A stretch of 64,000 nucleotides of DNA from a virus. Positions 5,725-28,062 of this stretch are shown here, in pieces. The position numbers were made by a program, and so were the translations under genes. The notes under the pieces were generated by a model. It did no database searches. It was given only the letters and a program-made list of their open reading frames with translations, and had not been told where the DNA came from. How positions within the stretch are numbered: the first letter of the stretch is position 1; every line of letters begins with the position of its first letter. The stretch lies in IMG/VR virus record IMGVR_UViG_3300042691_022081, positions 6,872 through 70,871 of that record; one strand, given 5' to 3'.

Positions 5725-7173
5725 TTATTGGCGACTAATTGCACCAAAAGGTAACCATTGACCAGGAGCACCACTGTCCATGCATATCCAGCCAACATAG
5801 TTGTCTACAGTTGGATTTGAATTCCAGCAGATGTCGCCTTTATTGAACGAGCCAACTGTTGGTGCGCTAGATCCTGTAATAAATTTTTTATTTGAAAACT
5901 GAATGTTCCCACTAACTGCCAAATCAACATCATCTGGAGGAGTGTTAATTCCCACAGTTAATTGTCCAAACACTTTAACTGGAACTTTTGTATTTTGTTT
6001 ATCACCAATTGTAATTTCATTTCGATCTGCATAAAACTTTTCTTGTCCTACAACGTCCATTACAATTTTTTGATTTGAGGAAAGTTTTCCGTTAGTTATA
6101 GTGAACTCATTGCCATCGTTAAACAAAATAGTTTTTGCATTAATCACTGCACGACTGGCGTTGATCCTGTCCATAAAGGTAGCTTCGCCCTGAACATTCA
6201 ATTCATCGAGAGTTCCTAGTTTAGAAATATTTGATTGAGTAACATTTGGCCCAAGCCCTTTGCTAGAAATAACAGAAACTCCGTTTATCATATAACTTTG
6301 ATCTTCTGCTAAATCAATAGATTCTGTGGACCATAGTCTATCTGGGCCAGCCATCATAACAAACTGTCTCATGCTACCAGTACCGGTCCAAACTAATCCT
6401 TGTCCGTAAATTGCACGTTCTCTGCTTGTTTTAAATTCTAAAGGTTGGTATCTGTCGATACGGTTGTCAGCTACTACAGTATCAACAGTTAACGTACCAT
6501 AAATTCTTACATCAGCATTTTTAGTCGATTCGTTTCCAAAAACAACTTGTCCATTATTTTTTATAGCAATTCTAGGCAAATTGTCTGTTATGATTTCTAA
6601 ATCATGACTAGTATATGTTCCTATCTGTGCTAGATTATCTCTTGGTGAGCTAATGATTACTTCTACATTATTATCAACTACACTTAGTACGCCGTTTGGA
6701 TTATCTGTGTTTAATCCTAATCTTCCAAATGCACTATTAAAATGTGCAAAATCTGCAATCGAAGCTTCGCCAGAAACTACAAGTTTTCTTAAAGTTCCAA
6801 GTTCTTTTAAATTACTTCTTGTAATAGTCCCGCCAAGACCATCTTTACTAAGCACAGGCGTATTTTCAATCATGTAAGATTTGTTTGCAGCAAGATCTAT
6901 GTCTGCGTCAGTCCACAGTCTAGCACCAGAACGATATGCTAACTGTATAGACCCTGTTGGCCAAGTCCAATGTAACCCTTTGGAAAATAATTCAGTCTCG
7001 TCTTCTACAGTCCAACTGCCAATGTCAGCGAGTGCGGTTTTTGGCTCTTCATCTAGCACTTTTAGTGAATTTACAGTAAGTGTGCCGTCAAGAGTCACAT
7101 CTCCTTGTATATCATTTACAGTGAGTTTTTTAATGACAACTTTGTCGTCTTGAATGGAAAAAATTTGGCTCAT
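5725..7173 (-). CDS. Putative virion structural / tail-fibre-associated protein with an internal duplication
   Basis: Two repeats of GL.WT...RLW....IDLA...SYMI....V.S..GLG.....SN...LGTL..L.V.GEA; C-terminal APTVGSFNKGDICWN...GWIC...GQW; upstream TAAATA at 7193-7198. Confidence 0.6.
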   Translation of the reverse strand: MSQIFSIQDDKVVIKKLTVNDIQGDVTLDGTLTVNSLKVLDEEPKTALADIGSWTVEDETELFSKGLHWTWPTGSIQLAYRSGARLWTDADIDLAANKSYMIENTPVLSKDGLGGTITRSNLKELGTLRKLVVSGEASIADFAHFNSAFGRLGLNTDNPNGVLSVVDNNVEVIISSPRDNLAQIGTYTSHDLEIITDNLPRIAIKNNGQVVFGNESTKNADVRIYGTLTVDTVVADNRIDRYQPLEFKTSRERAIYGQGLVWTGTGSMRQFVMMAGPDRLWSTESIDLAEDQSYMINGVSVISSKGLGPNVTQSNISKLGTLDELNVQGEATFMDRINASRAVINAKTILFNDGNEFTITNGKLSSNQKIVMDVVGQEKFYADRNEITIGDKQNTKVPVKVFGQLTVGINTPPDDVDLAVSGNIQFSNKKFITGSSAPTVGSFNKGDICWNSNPTVDNYVGWICMDSGAPGQWLPFGAISRQ

Positions 7174-8483: not shown

Positions 8484-8512
8484 ATTATAGCACCGAAAAG
8501 TACTTATGTCAA
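8484..8512 (-). promoter_or_regulatory. Consensus sigma70 promoter
   Basis: TTGACA-N17-TATAAT, exact. Confidence 0.85.
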
Positions 8513-9880
8513 GCTCTTGCATTCAGCGTATAACTTAGCCAATTCGGGAAATGTATCCAAAAAATTGGTATTTCTGCGCTTGTCGTGCTCATCAAAAAAC
8601 AAAGCAAAGTCTTTCAAATGGACTTGTTCTCGTTCTTCATCGAACAAGTATTGTATTCTTTCTAATTTGGCTACTTCCCAATTTTGGAAACCTTTGCCGT
8701 TACAGTGATTATCCTGCATGAATTTAACTTGTTTGATAATTTGATTTTTATATTCACTTGGTAAAATTCTAACACTCATCCATTTTGGATTGTCTAGATA
8801 AGGTATGTCTACATTAATTGAACGATCTTCGTCAAAATATTTTAACTTCATTAACAATACATCTTTTAAGAATTCTATATATGAAGTAACTGATAATGCG
8901 TTGTAAGTAGACATTATACTAAAATTAGCTTTAGGAACTTCGCTTAAAAATTTATAACAGTTTTCCAACCAGATATCATAGTCCATTCCGTTTCTAATGT
9001 ATTCTGCTTTTGCTCCGTAGGCTTCTGCACTTGTGAATAAGGTAAATCGTTTAACCGCTTTGTTTTCTTGAATAATTTTAATCTTTTCAATAAATTTGTC
9101 AAATAATTTATCAGGCAACACACAATTACTGTTGATTGCCAATTCTAAATTAGGATTAGGATTTTCAATAATATAGTCAAGGACTTTAAAAGTATCCTTG
9201 CTCATTAACGGTTCACCGCCAGTAATTCGAAAGGTATGTAATGTTGGATATACATCTGGCCACCATTTCCAAAATGCTTCTACATAAGGATTATGTTCCT
9301 TAATTGGAATAGGAATTTTGTTTTGATGCTTTGTATGTTCTAAATCATTATATCGAAGTGTAGTTGGATATCCGCCAAACTTTTCAATTTCTTCCATCCA
9401 CTTAGAACTAATATGTGGACTACAGTAAGCACATTTAAAATTACAAGCATGGCTAAAACTGACTTCTAGATAAGTTGGTTTTATATTTTTTTCATAGCCA
9501 GCTACCATGACATCAAAGTAGCGAGATTGGCCAGCCCAATCATCTGTACTTTTATAAATTCTGTCACTGAATACATCTGCATCTGTTGGTGCATTATCTT
9601 CAACTTGCCAACAAAAATGACATTCTTCTGGACGTTGTCCAGTCATCATTAATTTACGCTGTTGTTTTTTAAATGACGTGTTGTGTAAAGCACTAGGATC
9701 CTCTTGAATTTCTTCAATAGGGATTTTATGTGTGTTAGGATGATGACAACTGTGTGTATGCCCGTTTTGGAGGTGCAAAGTGACTTGTAGCCACTTTGCT
9801 AAACACATTCCGGGACCAGTTCTGTCTAATACTGTTTTTGCTTTTCTTAGCCAGATAATTTTTTCATCTGTCATGTCCAA
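8504..9880 (-). CDS. Radical SAM protein with an N-terminal twitch/SPASM-like Cys cluster
   Basis: CNFKCAYC and ITGGEPL; N-terminal CLAKW...SCHH...ECHFCW. Confidence 0.88.
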   Translation of the reverse strand: MDMTDEKIIWLRKAKTVLDRTGPGMCLAKWLQVTLHLQNGHTHSCHHPNTHKIPIEEIQEDPSALHNTSFKKQQRKLMMTGQRPEECHFCWQVEDNAPTDADVFSDRIYKSTDDWAGQSRYFDVMVAGYEKNIKPTYLEVSFSHACNFKCAYCSPHISSKWMEEIEKFGGYPTTLRYNDLEHTKHQNKIPIPIKEHNPYVEAFWKWWPDVYPTLHTFRITGGEPLMSKDTFKVLDYIIENPNPNLELAINSNCVLPDKLFDKFIEKIKIIQENKAVKRFTLFTSAEAYGAKAEYIRNGMDYDIWLENCYKFLSEVPKANFSIMSTYNALSVTSYIEFLKDVLLMKLKYFDEDRSINVDIPYLDNPKWMSVRILPSEYKNQIIKQVKFMQDNHCNGKGFQNWEVAKLERIQYLFDEEREQVHLKDFALFFDEHDKRRNTNFLDTFPELAKLYAECKSLT

Positions 9881-23700: not shown

Positions 23701-24096
23701 TTAATCATCTTCCCATGGTACAGGAAACCAACCTAGCCTGTCAAGATCTGTGGCAATCTCGTCTGTAATAGTTCCTTCTGGAACAAACTTCATTTGGGCC
23801 ATGTACTCATCACCTTCTTTCAAATCGTAACTTGCAAGACCGCCCATACCACTACAGTAATAGTCCATATAGTCTTCACCGTTATTACGAAACCGTGCTA
23901 CAATTCCGCCTGCGCCACGCCAACTAGCTGACCATAAATCCTTGCTTGGATCTTGTCTAATAGCAGGCCAAAGATCTTTTGGGCACCAGCGCATATTACA
24001 CCATGCCGCATATAGGTTTTGAGCATAGTCATCACGTGTGCGGATTTTGTTTAGAATCTCCGCATCTTTGTAAATGTCCTCAACTAAGTCCCTCAA
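23701..24096 (-). CDS. Hypothetical phage protein
   Basis: YAQNLYAAWCN...SWRGAGGIVA...YMDYYCSG. Confidence 0.7.
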   Translation of the reverse strand: MRDLVEDIYKDAEILNKIRTRDDYAQNLYAAWCNMRWCPKDLWPAIRQDPSKDLWSASWRGAGGIVARFRNNGEDYMDYYCSGMGGLASYDLKEGDEYMAQMKFVPEGTITDEIATDLDRLGWFPVPWEDD

Positions 24097-24458
24097 TGGA
24101 AATCACCTCTAAAACAATGCAAAGTCTCATGTCCTAGGTTATGAATACTAGCCATTTTTGGAGTCATAATAATACATTCTTTGCCTTGCCAAAACGAACA
24201 AGCCTGAACTGCAAAGTTAAACACTTTGCCTCCACGCTTTTTTTGTTCTGCGTTACAAGCGGCATCGATATCTTTAACAACGACCCAACGCAATTTTACA
24301 TCCATTACTTCGTTTTTACTAGCGTCAAATTTTGTCTCAGGATTTTCCCAACCCTTAAACGTCATAACTCCAGTAGATACGGGAGGTTTAGTATTAAAAC
24401 TCATAGTTACAATTACTGTTACAAGTAGTAAGCAACCAATCAAAAATGCCTTTTTCAT
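24093..24458 (-). CDS. Secreted or membrane-anchored protein with a C-terminal HExxH
   Basis: Signal-like N-terminus; LGHETLHCFRG. Confidence 0.65.
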   Translation of the reverse strand: MKKAFLIGCLLLVTVIVTMSFNTKPPVSTGVMTFKGWENPETKFDASKNEVMDVKLRWVVVKDIDAACNAEQKKRGGKVFNFAVQACSFWQGKECIIMTPKMASIHNLGHETLHCFRGDFH

Positions 24459-24483
24459 TCCAGCCTCTGTGTGTAGTTAATAA

Positions 24484-24600
24484 TGGTGTAGACGGTAGGA
24501 TTCGAACCTACAAAGCCGCCATATTGGCTTGGCCTGTTCCTCCCAATGGCAGTTTGTTACATACCACCGGGAGAGGTCTACCAGTTCCACTCACGTCTAC
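24484..24600 (-). tRNA. Atypical tRNA-like RNA (Leu-like frame, enlarged anticodon arm, no assignable anticodon)
   Basis: Acceptor stem GTAGACG/CGTCTAC + A + CCA; D-loop GGAACTGGTAGAC; T arm GTAGG-TTCGAAT-CCTAC. CTCCC/GGGAG encloses 24 nt instead of 7; long variable arm; 117 nt in total. Confidence 0.75.
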
Positions 24601-24606
24601 ATGCAT

Positions 24607-24635
24607 AGTATATATTCGATATTGGATAAAGTCAA
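24607..24635 (-). promoter_or_regulatory. sigma70-like promoter of the tRNA-like gene
   Basis: TTGACT-N17-TATACT ending 6 nt upstream of the mature 5' end. Confidence 0.75.
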
Positions 24636-24676
24636 GTTATTTTGGTACCCTAGTTGCTATACGTTAAATACATCTA

Positions 24677-25645
24677 ATGAACTTTAACCAAATACCATTC
24701 GAACAAATTGTAAGTTTTGGACAACGTACCATGTTAGATCGTCCGTTGTTTTCTGTAAGTTGGATTCTTGGACGATTTTGTAATTATAATTGTAGCTACT
24801 GTTGGCCATATGCCCGTAGCGACAAATTGGATCACCAACCACTTGAAGTTTACAAATCCACAGTAGACGAGATTAAAAGACAAGCACGGGCCAATGGGTT
24901 TAACCAATTCCATTGGAGTTTTAGTGGTGGCGAACCAACTGCCTATAAACATCTTTTGGATTTAATCAAACACCTAGACGAAAAAGAAAGCAGTTACCAA
25001 AGTGTGCATATGACTACTAATTTGTCGCCAGGAAGTAAATGGTGGAAAAGTTGGTGTGATGCAACTGCTTTGTTACAACGAAGAAGTATTACAGCCAGCT
25101 TCCATGATGAATTTGCAGGAGAACAAGAGTTCGGTGACAAGTGTTTACAATTACAATATGAACTAGTACATGTTACTGTTAATCAAGTTATGGTTCCTGA
25201 AAAGTTTTATGAATTATATGAGCGTATGGCAAGATTTCATAAACGTGGAATCAATGTAACTCTTAAACCACAAAGTGATCTTACTGCTAGTCGTGTAGTT
25301 GATGGCTACACTGATGATATGATTAAACTAATGCAAGAAGGGTTTCCACAAAAATCACAAGGAGAAGACGTTTATCAGATTCGTCTCAACGATGGGGTTA
25401 AAGATTATTACTTTGATCAGGCTGAAAGATTTAATGCTTTTGGATTTAATAAATTTAAAGATTGGACTTGCAATAGCGGTTATCAAAGTGTTATAATAAG
25501 AAGCAACGAAGTTAAAAGAAGTTATAGTTGTCATGATGAACCTCTAGGAACTCTTGAACACTTTGAATTATTTAAGGAACCTAAACGCTGTATTACTCCC
25601 ACATGTGTAAGTTCAGCAGATAGTAAGATACCAAAATGCAAATAG
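24677..25645 (+). CDS. Radical SAM protein with a C-terminal twitch-like region
   Basis: CNYNCSYC, FSGGEPT and C-terminal CNSG...SC...C...C. Confidence 0.88.
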   Translation: MNFNQIPFEQIVSFGQRTMLDRPLFSVSWILGRFCNYNCSYCWPYARSDKLDHQPLEVYKSTVDEIKRQARANGFNQFHWSFSGGEPTAYKHLLDLIKHLDEKESSYQSVHMTTNLSPGSKWWKSWCDATALLQRRSITASFHDEFAGEQEFGDKCLQLQYELVHVTVNQVMVPEKFYELYERMARFHKRGINVTLKPQSDLTASRVVDGYTDDMIKLMQEGFPQKSQGEDVYQIRLNDGVKDYYFDQAERFNAFGFNKFKDWTCNSGYQSVIIRSNEVKRSYSCHDEPLGTLEHFELFKEPKRCITPTCVSSADSKIPKCK

Positions 25646-26896: not shown

Positions 26897-28062
26897 TATA
26901 GGTCTATATTAAGTAAATCTAGTTTTGTTTTAACAGGGTTTCTATTAAACAAATATCTATTAGGTGGACTGTCTGGCAATACAAGTTTCTGATTTTTCCA
27001 AATATCTCTTCTAATAATTTGATGTAGAAAGTTTGTAATACCGTCAGGCACAAAGTTACACCAAGGTCCACTACGTAACTCTTCCATATCAATGTTAGTT
27101 TCGTCACACCAACTAATCAAACGTACAATCTTATCTTCAATCTTAACCATTACATGATAAATGTTATTGTCTGCTTCGATGATGCGTTCAAAATGTTTGC
27201 CGTTGTCCTTACACCATTGCTCTGCACGTTTGTATAAGTTACTAACAAATGGTTGTTCAGTACTAGCATTACGACCTATCTCTGCACCATTACGGATGCG
27301 GAAGTTTTTAGGAGTCCATGGGTTACTAGTAATCTCGGTTAAGATGTAATCAAGTTCACTAAAGTCCACCATAGTATAACTAATGTAACCTATCTTAACA
27401 TCTTCTCTGTGCATGTTCTCAATAGCACTAACTTGCTTACGTCTTACTGTTTCGTGATCAATGTAACTTGGATGATTAAGACCAATATTAACACCTGCAA
27501 GTCCCGCTTCAACACACTTGTGAGAGAATTCAATATCATTAAAACGTATTCCGTTAGTCATTACACTAACATCTATTGCAGGGTGTAGCCCACGTATTGC
27601 TGTTACCAATTCTGGAAAGTCTTTGCGTAAGGTACTTTCAGCACCAGCGAGGATAATTCTATGTACTCCATCCTCACCCACCGGCATGGCTCGTATTTGA
27701 TCAAGCAATTCTTCTATAGAAGGATCGCGGGTATCGTTTTCTGGTAAATGATAACAATGTGGGCATTCTAAATTACAACGATCACTGCCTTCAATAAGTA
27801 CTCCGCCATTAAAATTAAACTGAGGATTATCCTGAGTATAATACAGGTTAGCGTAAAACTCATAATCAGCTTCAATCATGTGATGACTAACACCGTGTAT
27901 AGGACACGCTTTAGCAATAAACACTTGATTGTCTTTATGATATCGCCACGCAGGAATGTGCCTATGGCACTGATGACAAAGACTTACTGTTTGATCTAAC
28001 AAAGTTCCTTTGATGGATTCTTGTAACCTTTCAATGTTAGATTGATTAAATCCTATAATCAT
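26896..28062 (-). CDS. Radical SAM protein with an N-terminal Zn-ribbon-like region
   Basis: SLCHQC...CPIHG, RCNLECPHCY and MTNG motifs. Confidence 0.85.
   Translation of the reverse strand: MIIGFNQSNIERLQESIKGTLLDQTVSLCHQCHRHIPAWRYHKDNQVFIAKACPIHGVSHHMIEADYEFYANLYYTQDNPQFNFNGGVLIEGSDRCNLECPHCYHLPENDTRDPSIEELLDQIRAMPVGEDGVHRIILAGAESTLRKDFPELVTAIRGLHPAIDVSVMTNGIRFNDIEFSHKCVEAGLAGVNIGLNHPSYIDHETVRRKQVSAIENMHREDVKIGYISYTMVDFSELDYILTEITSNPWTPKNFRIRNGAEIGRNASTEQPFVSNLYKRAEQWCKDNGKHFERIIEADNNIYHVMVKIEDKIVRLISWCDETNIDMEELRSGPWCNFVPDGITNFLHQIIRRDIWKNQKLVLPDSPPNRYLFNRNPVKTKLDLLNIDL

Follow-up and report, generated by a model that had tools for sequence, protein, structure and literature searches.

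What use does a phage have for an RNA that keeps the body of a leucine tRNA and carries no anticodon? This question is raised by a locus in a 64,000-nucleotide (nt) stretch of viral DNA, positions 6,872 to 70,871 of the IMG/VR record IMGVR_UViG_3300042691_022081, which was analysed over its full length and is referred to here as the window. A tRNA-like RNA of 117 nt lies on the minus strand of the window at 24484..24600, with G1 at 24600 and the A of its CCA end at 24484. Comparison with its relatives leaves hardly any doubt that the RNA belongs to a real functional RNA family. The preferred reading, to which a probability of roughly 0.45 is given, is that the locus is a phage gene for a trans-acting, non-decoding mimic of tRNA-Leu, carried once per genome in a clade of freshwater giant phages.

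Structure of the RNA in the window

A sequence-only reading of this locus had described an RNA with an intact acceptor stem, A73, an encoded CCA, a T loop, a Leu-type D loop, a long variable arm and an extended middle arm, and all of these parts are found in the sequence of the minus strand, to which the coordinates of the RNA refer. The 5' strand of the acceptor stem, GUAGACG (24594..24600), forms seven of seven standard pairs with CGUCUAC (24494-24488); this 3' strand, the discriminator A73 (24487) and the encoded CCA (24486-24484) together occupy 24484..24494. U8, G9 and the D arm are located at 24574..24593, where the stem is made of A10-U25 and G11-C24 and then meets a U12/C23 mismatch. 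The D loop, GGAACUGGUAGA (in DNA letters GGAACTGGTAGA; 24588-24577), is of the leucine type, with G18, G19 and A20a. The place of the anticodon stem-loop is taken by a middle arm (24540..24573), which is a 12-base-pair (bp) rod, CUCCC GGUGGUA / UGCCAUU GGGAG; at the DNA level, CTCCC/GGGAG surrounds 24 nt, and GGTGGTA/TGCCATT prolongs the helix, G-U pairs included. The rod is capped by a 10-nt loop, UGUAACAAAC (in DNA letters TGTAACAAAC; 24551-24560). The long variable arm, GGCC-AA-GCCA AUA UGGC-GGCU (24514..24534), is a two-part helix, and the T arm reads GUAGG-UUCGAAU-CCUAC (24495..24511). The cloverleaf with the rod is the minimum-free-energy fold of the RNA (-46 kcal/mol; z-score -3.63), and none of 200 shuffles was as stable.

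ARAGORN reported neither a tRNA nor a transfer-messenger RNA (tmRNA) in the 64-kb window. Rfam gave no match in the window at the gathering score; its top sub-threshold match was tRNA-Sec (RF01852), with 19.8 bits against a cut-off of 47 (E = 0.24). The covariance model R1, built from 35 members of the family described below, finds one match in the window, namely this RNA, at 96.8 bits. A conserved ACCUCC was considered as an anti-Shine-Dalgarno mimic and dropped, being paired within the D and anticodon stems; the window copy reads ACCUCU.

Conservation of the RNA family

Regarding the distribution of the RNA, one search was blind to the RNA itself and used as its anchor the protein of the divergent radical S-adenosylmethionine (radical-SAM) gene beside it (24677-25645). 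Among the best 80 of 342 relatives of this protein in viral contigs, a complete RNA homologue stands at the same place beside the radical-SAM gene in 53 loci, and the 5' part of the RNA is seen at the contig end in 4. The upstream region is too short to judge in another 4, and the remaining 19 have at least 260 nt upstream with no RNA there; one of these 19 is the genome G003, where the RNA sits 37 kb off. Two motif scans of viral contigs, with a T-arm pattern and a D-arm pattern, yielded at least 120 stretches each. Of 316 sequences searched with blastn, nhmmer and the R1 profile, 174 contain the RNA, each in a single copy. Altogether, at least 126 distinct loci (the RNA with 150 nt on each side) and at least 98 distinct RNAs of 96-119 nt were obtained from related IMG/VR phage contigs, these counts being lower bounds that are biased by the motifs used. 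On R1 the family members score 74-115 bits and the ordinary tRNAs in the same loci at most 45.7 bits. Five genome records were searched as well, and every one of them, including two rated 94% and 100% complete, has exactly one member. The carriers form a clade of uncultured freshwater giant phages with genomes of about 280-365 kb, and the group is widespread.

The family was found only in viral contigs, the bacterial test being limited to the D-arm motif. In that test, a scan of 185,579 bacterial species genomes returned three stretches, none of which was upheld by R1 (E <= 0.001). GenBank phages gave no match to the locus by blastn or to the neighbouring radical-SAM protein by tblastn. No Rfam family matches these RNAs, and Rfam holds no model for the family. 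Full-text literature searches turned up no account of a tRNA-like RNA from a phage that lacks an anticodon; PMC10690425, which catalogues 8,495 candidate structured RNAs from IMG/VR, could, judged by the available part of that paper, hold the motif without naming it.

The helices of the RNA are maintained while their sequences change. In a 35-sequence alignment, 93.8% of the cells are in standard pairs against 84.2% in shuffles, 11 of 24 pairs are changed on both sides, which none of 500 shuffles reaches, and the covariation score is 0.278. An alignment of 77 distinct sequences, fitted to R1 and drawn from loci fetched with the D-arm motif, gave 93.3% of cells in standard pairs, 14 of 24 pairs changed on both sides (0 of 500 shuffles) and a covariation score of 0.306, compared with 0.130 in shuffles and at most 0.066 when partners were slid. 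In this larger set the acceptor stem has 99.6% of its cells paired and six of seven pairs changed on both sides, the five basal pairs of the variable arm are 98.1% paired with three changed on both sides, and the T arm is 100% paired with three of five pairs so changed. Compensatory pairs are thus seen in the acceptor, variable and T helices. The invariance of the D arm in the 77-sequence set is partly built in, because the loci were fetched with the D-arm motif. The set anchored on the neighbouring protein alone shows the same features in 32 distinct sequences, and the same D arm in all lineages but one. These alignments show the acceptor, A73-CCA, D loop, long variable arm and T arm to be under purifying selection with compensatory changes.

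Replacement of the anticodon arm

The middle arm behaves differently from the rest of the molecule. The 95 members that were aligned have 47 different middle arms, which are 12-34 nt long and are predicted to end in loops of 3, 4, 5, 6, 9 or 10 nt. The sequence-only reading would have been contradicted by relatives with a normal 7-nt anticodon loop, and none of the 47 arms has one. Many arms are plain rods with the tetraloop caps UUCG, CUUG or GNRA (GUGA, GAGA, GCAA, GCGA, GGGA). The shortest are CCAG-CUUG-CUGG, with a 4-bp stem, and CCUCCC-UUCG-GGGAGG, and the window copy belongs to the longest class. An elongator tRNA has a 5-bp anticodon stem and a 7-nt loop with U33 and an anticodon, and this set of features is missing here. 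Comparison of the arms shows that the anticodon stem-loop has been replaced by a hairpin that is free in length, sequence and cap, and the RNA is very probably non-decoding.

Within this free arm, two conserved elements were observed. The decaloop UGUAACRAAC of the long-arm subfamily (24551-24560 on the minus strand of the window; also L002, L010, L019, L223, L249 and L278) is conserved while its stem co-varies, and another subfamily has a conserved UAGUA/GAAC internal loop in the middle arm, which presumably resembles the bulged-G (sarcin-ricin-type) motif.

ARAGORN called 4 of 16 members tested and misnamed them; these were the four shortest, all of 96-101 nt, and the identities assigned were mutually inconsistent, namely Ser-GCU, Arg-UCG, Pro-GGG and one with a 4-base anticodon that was left undetermined. 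The Rfam tRNA model called none of six members and nothing in the window.

The window copy alone looks like a tRNA-Leu with 24 extra nt in the anticodon arm, which could suggest a decaying pseudogene with a one-off insertion or a precursor in which they form a short intron. The latter had been offered by the sequence-only reading, which had itself doubted simple decay. Decay is contradicted by the 98 distinct homologues, in which each of the four tRNA helices shows compensatory changes, the marks of a selected family. An intron is excluded by the short arms, into which an anticodon loop would not fit: the 12- and 16-nt arms are a stem with a tetraloop, such as the 4-bp stem with CUUG, and cannot hold the exons of an anticodon loop. 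Arms of 12-34 nt never show a 7-nt loop, and removal of no block from the 24 nt of the window copy leaves a loop with U33. Both explanations can be practically dismissed.

Leucine-type body and the prospect of charging

The RNA has the features of a type-II tRNA in its acceptor stem, discriminator and CCA, in its T arm (U54, U55, C56, A58), in its D loop (A14, G18, G19, A21) and in its long variable arm. Across the 98 distinct sequences, A73, U8, A10, G11, U48, G53, U54, U55, C56, A58 and C61 are invariant, as are the D-loop residues read as G18, G19, A20a and A21, and A14 and A15 are nearly so. All 98 thus have A as the discriminator, and none of the patterns used placed a constraint on position 73 or on U48. 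The encoded CCA, also present in 98 of 98, was demanded by the pattern that was used to find the end. The likeness to tRNA-Leu extends to the 7-bp acceptor stem with A73 and an encoded CCA, to the long variable arm, to the T arm with UUCGAAU, to U8, to A14, to A15 with U48 and to the D loop GGAAYUGGUAKA with G18, G19 and A20a. This D-loop motif matches the tRNA-Leu of related phages and of T4, and among the T4 tRNAs it is tRNA-Leu that scores highest on R1, at 37.7 bits. The family differs from tRNA-Leu in that it lacks an anticodon loop, has a longer variable arm and an invariant U/C mismatch in the D stem, and possesses its own promoter with a predicted start at position 1 instead of being processed from a cluster. 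Marks of a serine tRNA are absent: there is no G73, and pair 2-71, where G-C would be a serine mark, is always either U-A or C-G.

The sequence-only reading held that leucyl-tRNA synthetase (LeuRS) largely ignores the anticodon and relies on A73 and the tertiary fold. For Escherichia coli this agrees with the available part of PMC9976931, in which leucine identity is given as A73, A15-U48, G18G19, A20a and the D/T-loop contacts, the anticodon and the variable arm are described as unimportant, and variants without both arms are still charged. The further suggestion that the RNA might be charged and unusable on the ribosome fits as well, since these identity elements are kept (A15 nearly always). 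The RNA thus appears to carry what bacterial LeuRS is known to read. Charging by LeuRS is rated as plausible at somewhat under even odds, and it would follow from these retained elements.

The pattern of constraint says that the parts touched by the synthetase, EF-Tu and acceptor-end enzymes would be the ones kept, and those touched by the ribosome and by anticodon nucleases the ones set free. This pattern argues that the phage would need an RNA that is handled as tRNA-Leu yet never decodes. The family is in this respect a natural test of how much of a tRNA is needed by bacterial LeuRS, EF-Tu and acceptor-end enzymes.

Promoter and transcript ends

A promoter of the form TTGACT-N17-TATACT had been noticed in the sequence-only reading, and it is present at 24635-24607. 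The -35 hexamer TTGACT (24630..24635, minus strand) is separated by 17 nt from the -10 hexamer TATACT (24607..24612, minus strand), the last base of which lies 6 nt ahead of G1. A single promoter match in the window is not beyond chance, with 8 sites in 2 kb against 6.2 expected. The match is meaningful because it is conserved, with a fixed spacing, in the relatives: of the 104 distinct 60-mers upstream of family members, 103 contain TTGnnn-N16-18-TAnnnT, and in 91 of these 103 the distance from the end of the -10 element to G1 is exactly 6 nt. The conservation shows that the RNA has its own promoter, of the sigma-70 type by its motif, at a fixed distance. Because the position of the -10 element corresponds to the usual sigma-70 geometry, transcription probably starts at G1, in which case the mature 5' end would be formed as a triphosphate and RNase P would be unneeded.

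A comparable arrangement is found in the leaderless tRNA genes of Nanoarchaeum equitans, where the promoter is placed for a start at the first tRNA nucleotide; according to the available parts of PMC10100707 and PMC3491384, RNase P is thereby made unnecessary and a 5' triphosphate is left. The RNAs of N. equitans are real decoding tRNAs in an organism without RNase P, whereas in these phages a single RNA has the leaderless arrangement and the ordinary tRNAs are packed in clusters.

As for the 3' end, the trailer after the CCA is U/A-rich at the family loci, and no terminator-like site was found around the window copy. A same-strand open reading frame (ORF) of at least 40 amino acids (aa) begins 6-43 nt after the CCA in all 117 assessable loci; therefore, the 3' end must come from processing. 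In three small lake metatranscriptomes of the same study, no contig was placed on 24300-24800 at 80% likeness, which is evidence neither way.

The close downstream ORF and the lack of a terminator in the window leave room for a cis role on the downstream messenger RNA (mRNA). The fold would then be a 5' module, the first 96-119 nt of the mRNA, which protects the 5' end or sets a processing site, and the placing of the promoter, by which the first base of the structure would also be the first to be transcribed, is consistent with such a module. However, the downstream gene belongs to eight unrelated families while the RNA is tightly constrained: in the 117 assessable loci it encodes a small secreted HExxH protein in 55, a histone-like protein of the Pfam family Hc1 in 54 and proteins of six other families in 8. 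Moreover, a stabiliser of the 5' end needs no invariant A73-CCA, Leu-type D loop, G18G19, T loop or long variable arm. The absence of terminators carries little weight here, as large phages usually pack their genes tightly and without them, and at one locus, L313, the RNA stands amid genes for ordinary tRNAs, with a long AT-rich spacer behind it. A cis-acting module is accordingly judged to be distinctly improbable, and the lack of conservation of the downstream gene argues for action in trans.

Possible functions

In the proposed mechanism, the host RNA polymerase would start at G1, early, leaving the 5' triphosphate without the help of RNase P. The transcript would run into the next gene, and its 3' end would be trimmed back to the encoded CCA. 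The RNA would then fold into the L-shape of a tRNA, and the host LeuRS would bind it and probably charge it with leucine. An RNA with no anticodon cannot decode, and it would therefore act in trans, off the ribosome. The preferred use is that of a sink or decoy, occupying a host factor that reads the body or the acceptor end of type-II or charged tRNAs; this role is proposed tentatively, with the odds against it. The RNA is not a spare decoder, since three large related genomes have 26-28 ordinary tRNAs in a separate cluster, including two or three tRNA-Leu each.

A decoy would fit the investment of the clade in tRNAs and RNA repair, and the counter-defence known from phage tRNAs, which counter tRNA-cleaving defences according to the available part of PMC13728456. 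In G003, a T4 Rnl1-type RNA ligase (PF09511; L203:8392-9740, minus strand) is encoded beside an AAA_33 kinase, 2.5-4 kb from the RNA. The two look like a tRNA-repair pair, suggesting that tRNA conflict matters to the clade. A decoy for anticodon nucleases in particular, which the sequence-only reading had listed among the possible roles, finds no support because there is no anticodon loop to cut. Once found, the partner of the RNA would reveal a new RNA-based counter-defence or a new extra-translational use of aminoacyl-RNA.

The conserved elements of the L-shape apply equally to an uncharged structural mimic, which would work by shape and titrate LeuRS, EF-Tu, a tRNA-modifying or tRNA-processing enzyme or a host sensor of tRNA. 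The weak D stem and the variable arm, which is unusually long for a tRNA-Leu, would suit such a molecule, and the tRNA-like genes of murid herpesvirus 4 are reportedly a viral example of tRNA look-alikes that are not charged. However, the invariant discriminator and the encoded CCA (98 of 98, the CCA being required by the pattern) fit a use of the 3' end best, and no candidate target is known for a mimic of this kind, which is therefore regarded as unlikely.

Several points weigh against the reading of the RNA as a trans-acting tRNA-Leu mimic. The transcript, both of its ends and its possible aminoacylation are predictions, and the gene that follows the RNA so closely in all 117 assessable loci, without a terminator in the window, has been mentioned above. 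Nothing was found that points to a specific decoy target. In all 77 distinct sequences the D stem carries a U/C mismatch beside only two Watson-Crick pairs, the tRNA-Leu of the phages themselves has a shorter variable arm, and the nearest Rfam model is that of tRNA-Sec. Part of the invariance is built in by the searches, at least 120 loci having been fetched by the D-arm pattern and at least 120 by the T-arm pattern. A73 is the commonest discriminator, and most of the conserved tertiary nucleotides belong to the universal tRNA core, which any partner that reads the L-shape would keep. The rules for LeuRS come from E. coli and a few other species and may not be those of the host; in addition, the anticodon arm matters for editing by LeuRS, as stated in the available part of PMC9976931.

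Genomic context and the neighbouring enzyme island

The window is part of a large tailed phage, as indicated by tail-fibre and baseplate-type proteins, a DNA ligase and ClpP, and its source record of 70,871 bases is 19% complete by CheckV. Upstream of the RNA and divergent from it lies the radical-SAM gene (24677..25645, plus strand; 322 aa; Pfam Radical_SAM E = 8.4e-13), which is the first gene of an enzyme island and is the upstream divergent neighbour in 93 of 121 assessable loci. A role of this neighbour as a tRNA enzyme was considered and rejected, NCBIfam giving generic sub-threshold radical-SAM matches only, such as viperin-like and MoaA-like. The RNA was also considered as an attachment site of the island and rejected, as its 3' 28 nt have no second copy or fragment in the window (at most three mismatches).

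The island (24677-63589) holds 12 ORFs with a match to the Pfam radical-SAM family. Their starts are at 24677, 26896, 28059, 32831, 34288, 46323, 47639, 48697, 50091, 51839, 52750 and 57121, and the matches of the ORFs at 28059 and 47639 score no higher than the Pfam cut-off. A thirteenth radical-SAM ORF lies outside the island at 8504-9880, and several of the radical-SAM ORFs in the window have B12-binding or SPASM domains. The island also encodes 2-oxoglutarate (2OG) oxygenases, two Asp/Asn hydroxylase-like proteins, an aminotransferase, a methyltransferase, a nitroreductase and a fatty-acid desaturase.

On the other side, the first downstream ORF (24093..24458, minus strand; 121 aa) has a signal-peptide-like N terminus and an HExxH motif. 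It begins 25 nt after the CCA with no terminator between, and is therefore probably co-transcribed with the RNA. Its protein has no Pfam or NCBIfam match. The HExxH family (the window and 54 relatives) comprises proteins of about 105-120 aa with a signal peptide and conserved cysteines, and is the commonest gene directly downstream of the RNA.

The position of the RNA beside this island had led the sequence-only reading to propose an aminoacyl donor for the island enzymes. According to this proposal, the host LeuRS would load the RNA, probably with leucine, and the charged RNA would be reserved, off the ribosome, for an unrecognised phage enzyme of radical-SAM-rich, amide-forming islands. That enzyme would take the RNA-bound amino acid or build on it, with the RNA as donor or scaffold, so that a peptide or small molecule would be made or modified, and the missing anticodon would keep the charged pool away from the ribosome. 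If this were true, the RNA would be the first anticodon-less carrier RNA for a non-ribosomal use, and the first in a virus. The proposal draws on the location of the RNA, which in most genomes borders an enzyme island, on the frequency of the radical-SAM neighbour (93 of 121 loci), on the content of the window island, which reaches from 24.7 to beyond 63.6 kb with its 12 radical-SAM ORFs, oxygenases, aminotransferase, methyltransferase and desaturase, and on the conserved charging determinants. Many island ORFs are without family assignment and could hide a new transferase. In G001 (345 kb, 94% complete), moreover, the RNA abuts another enzyme block, with an AdoMet decarboxylase, a DctP binding protein and PP-loop-like and desaturase-like proteins.

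Adjacency alone is weak evidence, because tRNA genes often sit at plastic genome regions. The RNA and the radical-SAM gene are also separable. In G003 (363,943 bases, 100% complete) they are 37 kb apart, and the RNA follows AhpD- and AhpC-like genes; G001 carries the RNA, and the radical-SAM neighbour has no homologue there at E <= 1e-20; and the RNA is not beside the radical-SAM gene in 19 of the best 80 anchored loci. Furthermore, five enzyme families that use aminoacyl-tRNA were each found in none of four records (G000-G003), namely L/F-transferase (PF03588), the Fem-type families (PF13480 and PF02388), cyclodipeptide synthase (PF16715) and LanB/PEARL (PF04738), their controls being positive in 1 to 10 of 14 reference genomes; for LanB the control was positive in a single genome, with a score that did not reach the family cut-off. 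The same four records had no class Ia synthetase (PF00133) and no CCA-adding enzyme (PF01743), for which control genomes were positive. The donor proposal is therefore weakened; a dedicated amino-acid carrier is the runner-up to decoy use and is held to be quite unlikely. With respect to its location, the RNA is a constant of the clade at a plastic junction, and is neither the accessory of one island nor the leader of one gene.

Comparison with other tRNA-like RNAs

Known tRNA mimics include the tRNA-like domain of tmRNA, Y RNAs, viral tRNA-like structures and T4 RNAC. The family described here is distinct from them in that it keeps the whole body of tRNA-Leu together with the elements read by the synthetase, loses in about 100 variants only what the ribosome and anticodon nucleases read, and appears to be transcribed from its first nucleotide.

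The tRNA-like domain of tmRNA is likewise a tRNA mimic without an anticodon; it is charged by a synthetase that ignores the anticodon and binds EF-Tu, as described in the available part of PMC3985003. In contrast to tmRNA, the family has no G3-U70 identity for alanine: in the 76 distinct sequences with letters at pair 3-70, this pair is G-C 38 times, A-U 37 times and G-U once. The RNAs of 96-119 nt have no message-like frame and no pseudoknots, and they have a full D arm and the middle-arm rod. The permuted-tmRNA model scores 11.7 bits on the window locus against a cut-off of 47, and SmpB (PF01668) was found in none of the four records (G000-G003), with control genomes positive.

The bacterial Y RNA YrlA is a non-coding RNA with a tRNA-like module, and in some giant phages it occurs together with Ro (available part of PMC7824862). 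The Y RNA models of Rfam gave no match up to E = 10 in 24300-24800, and Ro/TROVE (PF05731) was absent from the four records, with control genomes positive. The termini of YrlA form a Ro-binding stem, whereas those of the family form an acceptor stem that ends in CCA. The tRNA-Sec model, as mentioned above, stays below its gathering threshold.

T4 RNAC (species 1 RNA, rnaC) and RNAD are, like the present RNA, small phage RNAs that lie beside or derive from tRNA genes, and their roles are called unknown in the available parts of PMC3014915 and PMC9697503. In T4 rnaC (L202:4909-5047, minus strand), a canonical T arm of the tRNA type, GGGUUCGAAUCCC, is followed by an acceptor-like 3' strand, and there are long extra hairpins; the fold z-score is -4.57. 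It differs from the family in that its annotation is without a CCA end, it lies inside a tRNA cluster and no Leu-type D loop was seen in it; it is classed as a late RNA in the available part of PMC9697503. RNAC and RNAD were rejected as homologues, R1 giving 20.5 bits on the 3' part of rnaC only and rnaD being absent from the matches listed. The fold of rnaD is no better than that of shuffles (z = -0.83).

Other unusual RNAs were observed in tRNA clusters of phage contigs. Two related RNAs of about 130 nt (L130:7080-7209, minus strand, and L115:3269-3397, plus strand) have an acceptor of the GGGGAUG/CAUCCCC type, ACCA and a D arm, which long inserts separate from a weak T arm. They may represent a further tRNA-like RNA of unusual length or a tRNA with an intron. 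Two related giant phages have, in their tRNA clusters, what ARAGORN reported as an unusually long, 92-nt tRNA-Ile with the anticodon TAT (L207:10787-10878 and L208:5709-5800, both minus strand). In the cluster of G003, it reported a tRNA-Asn with the anticodon ATT (L206:4111-4182, minus strand) beside a normal tRNA-Asn (GTT).

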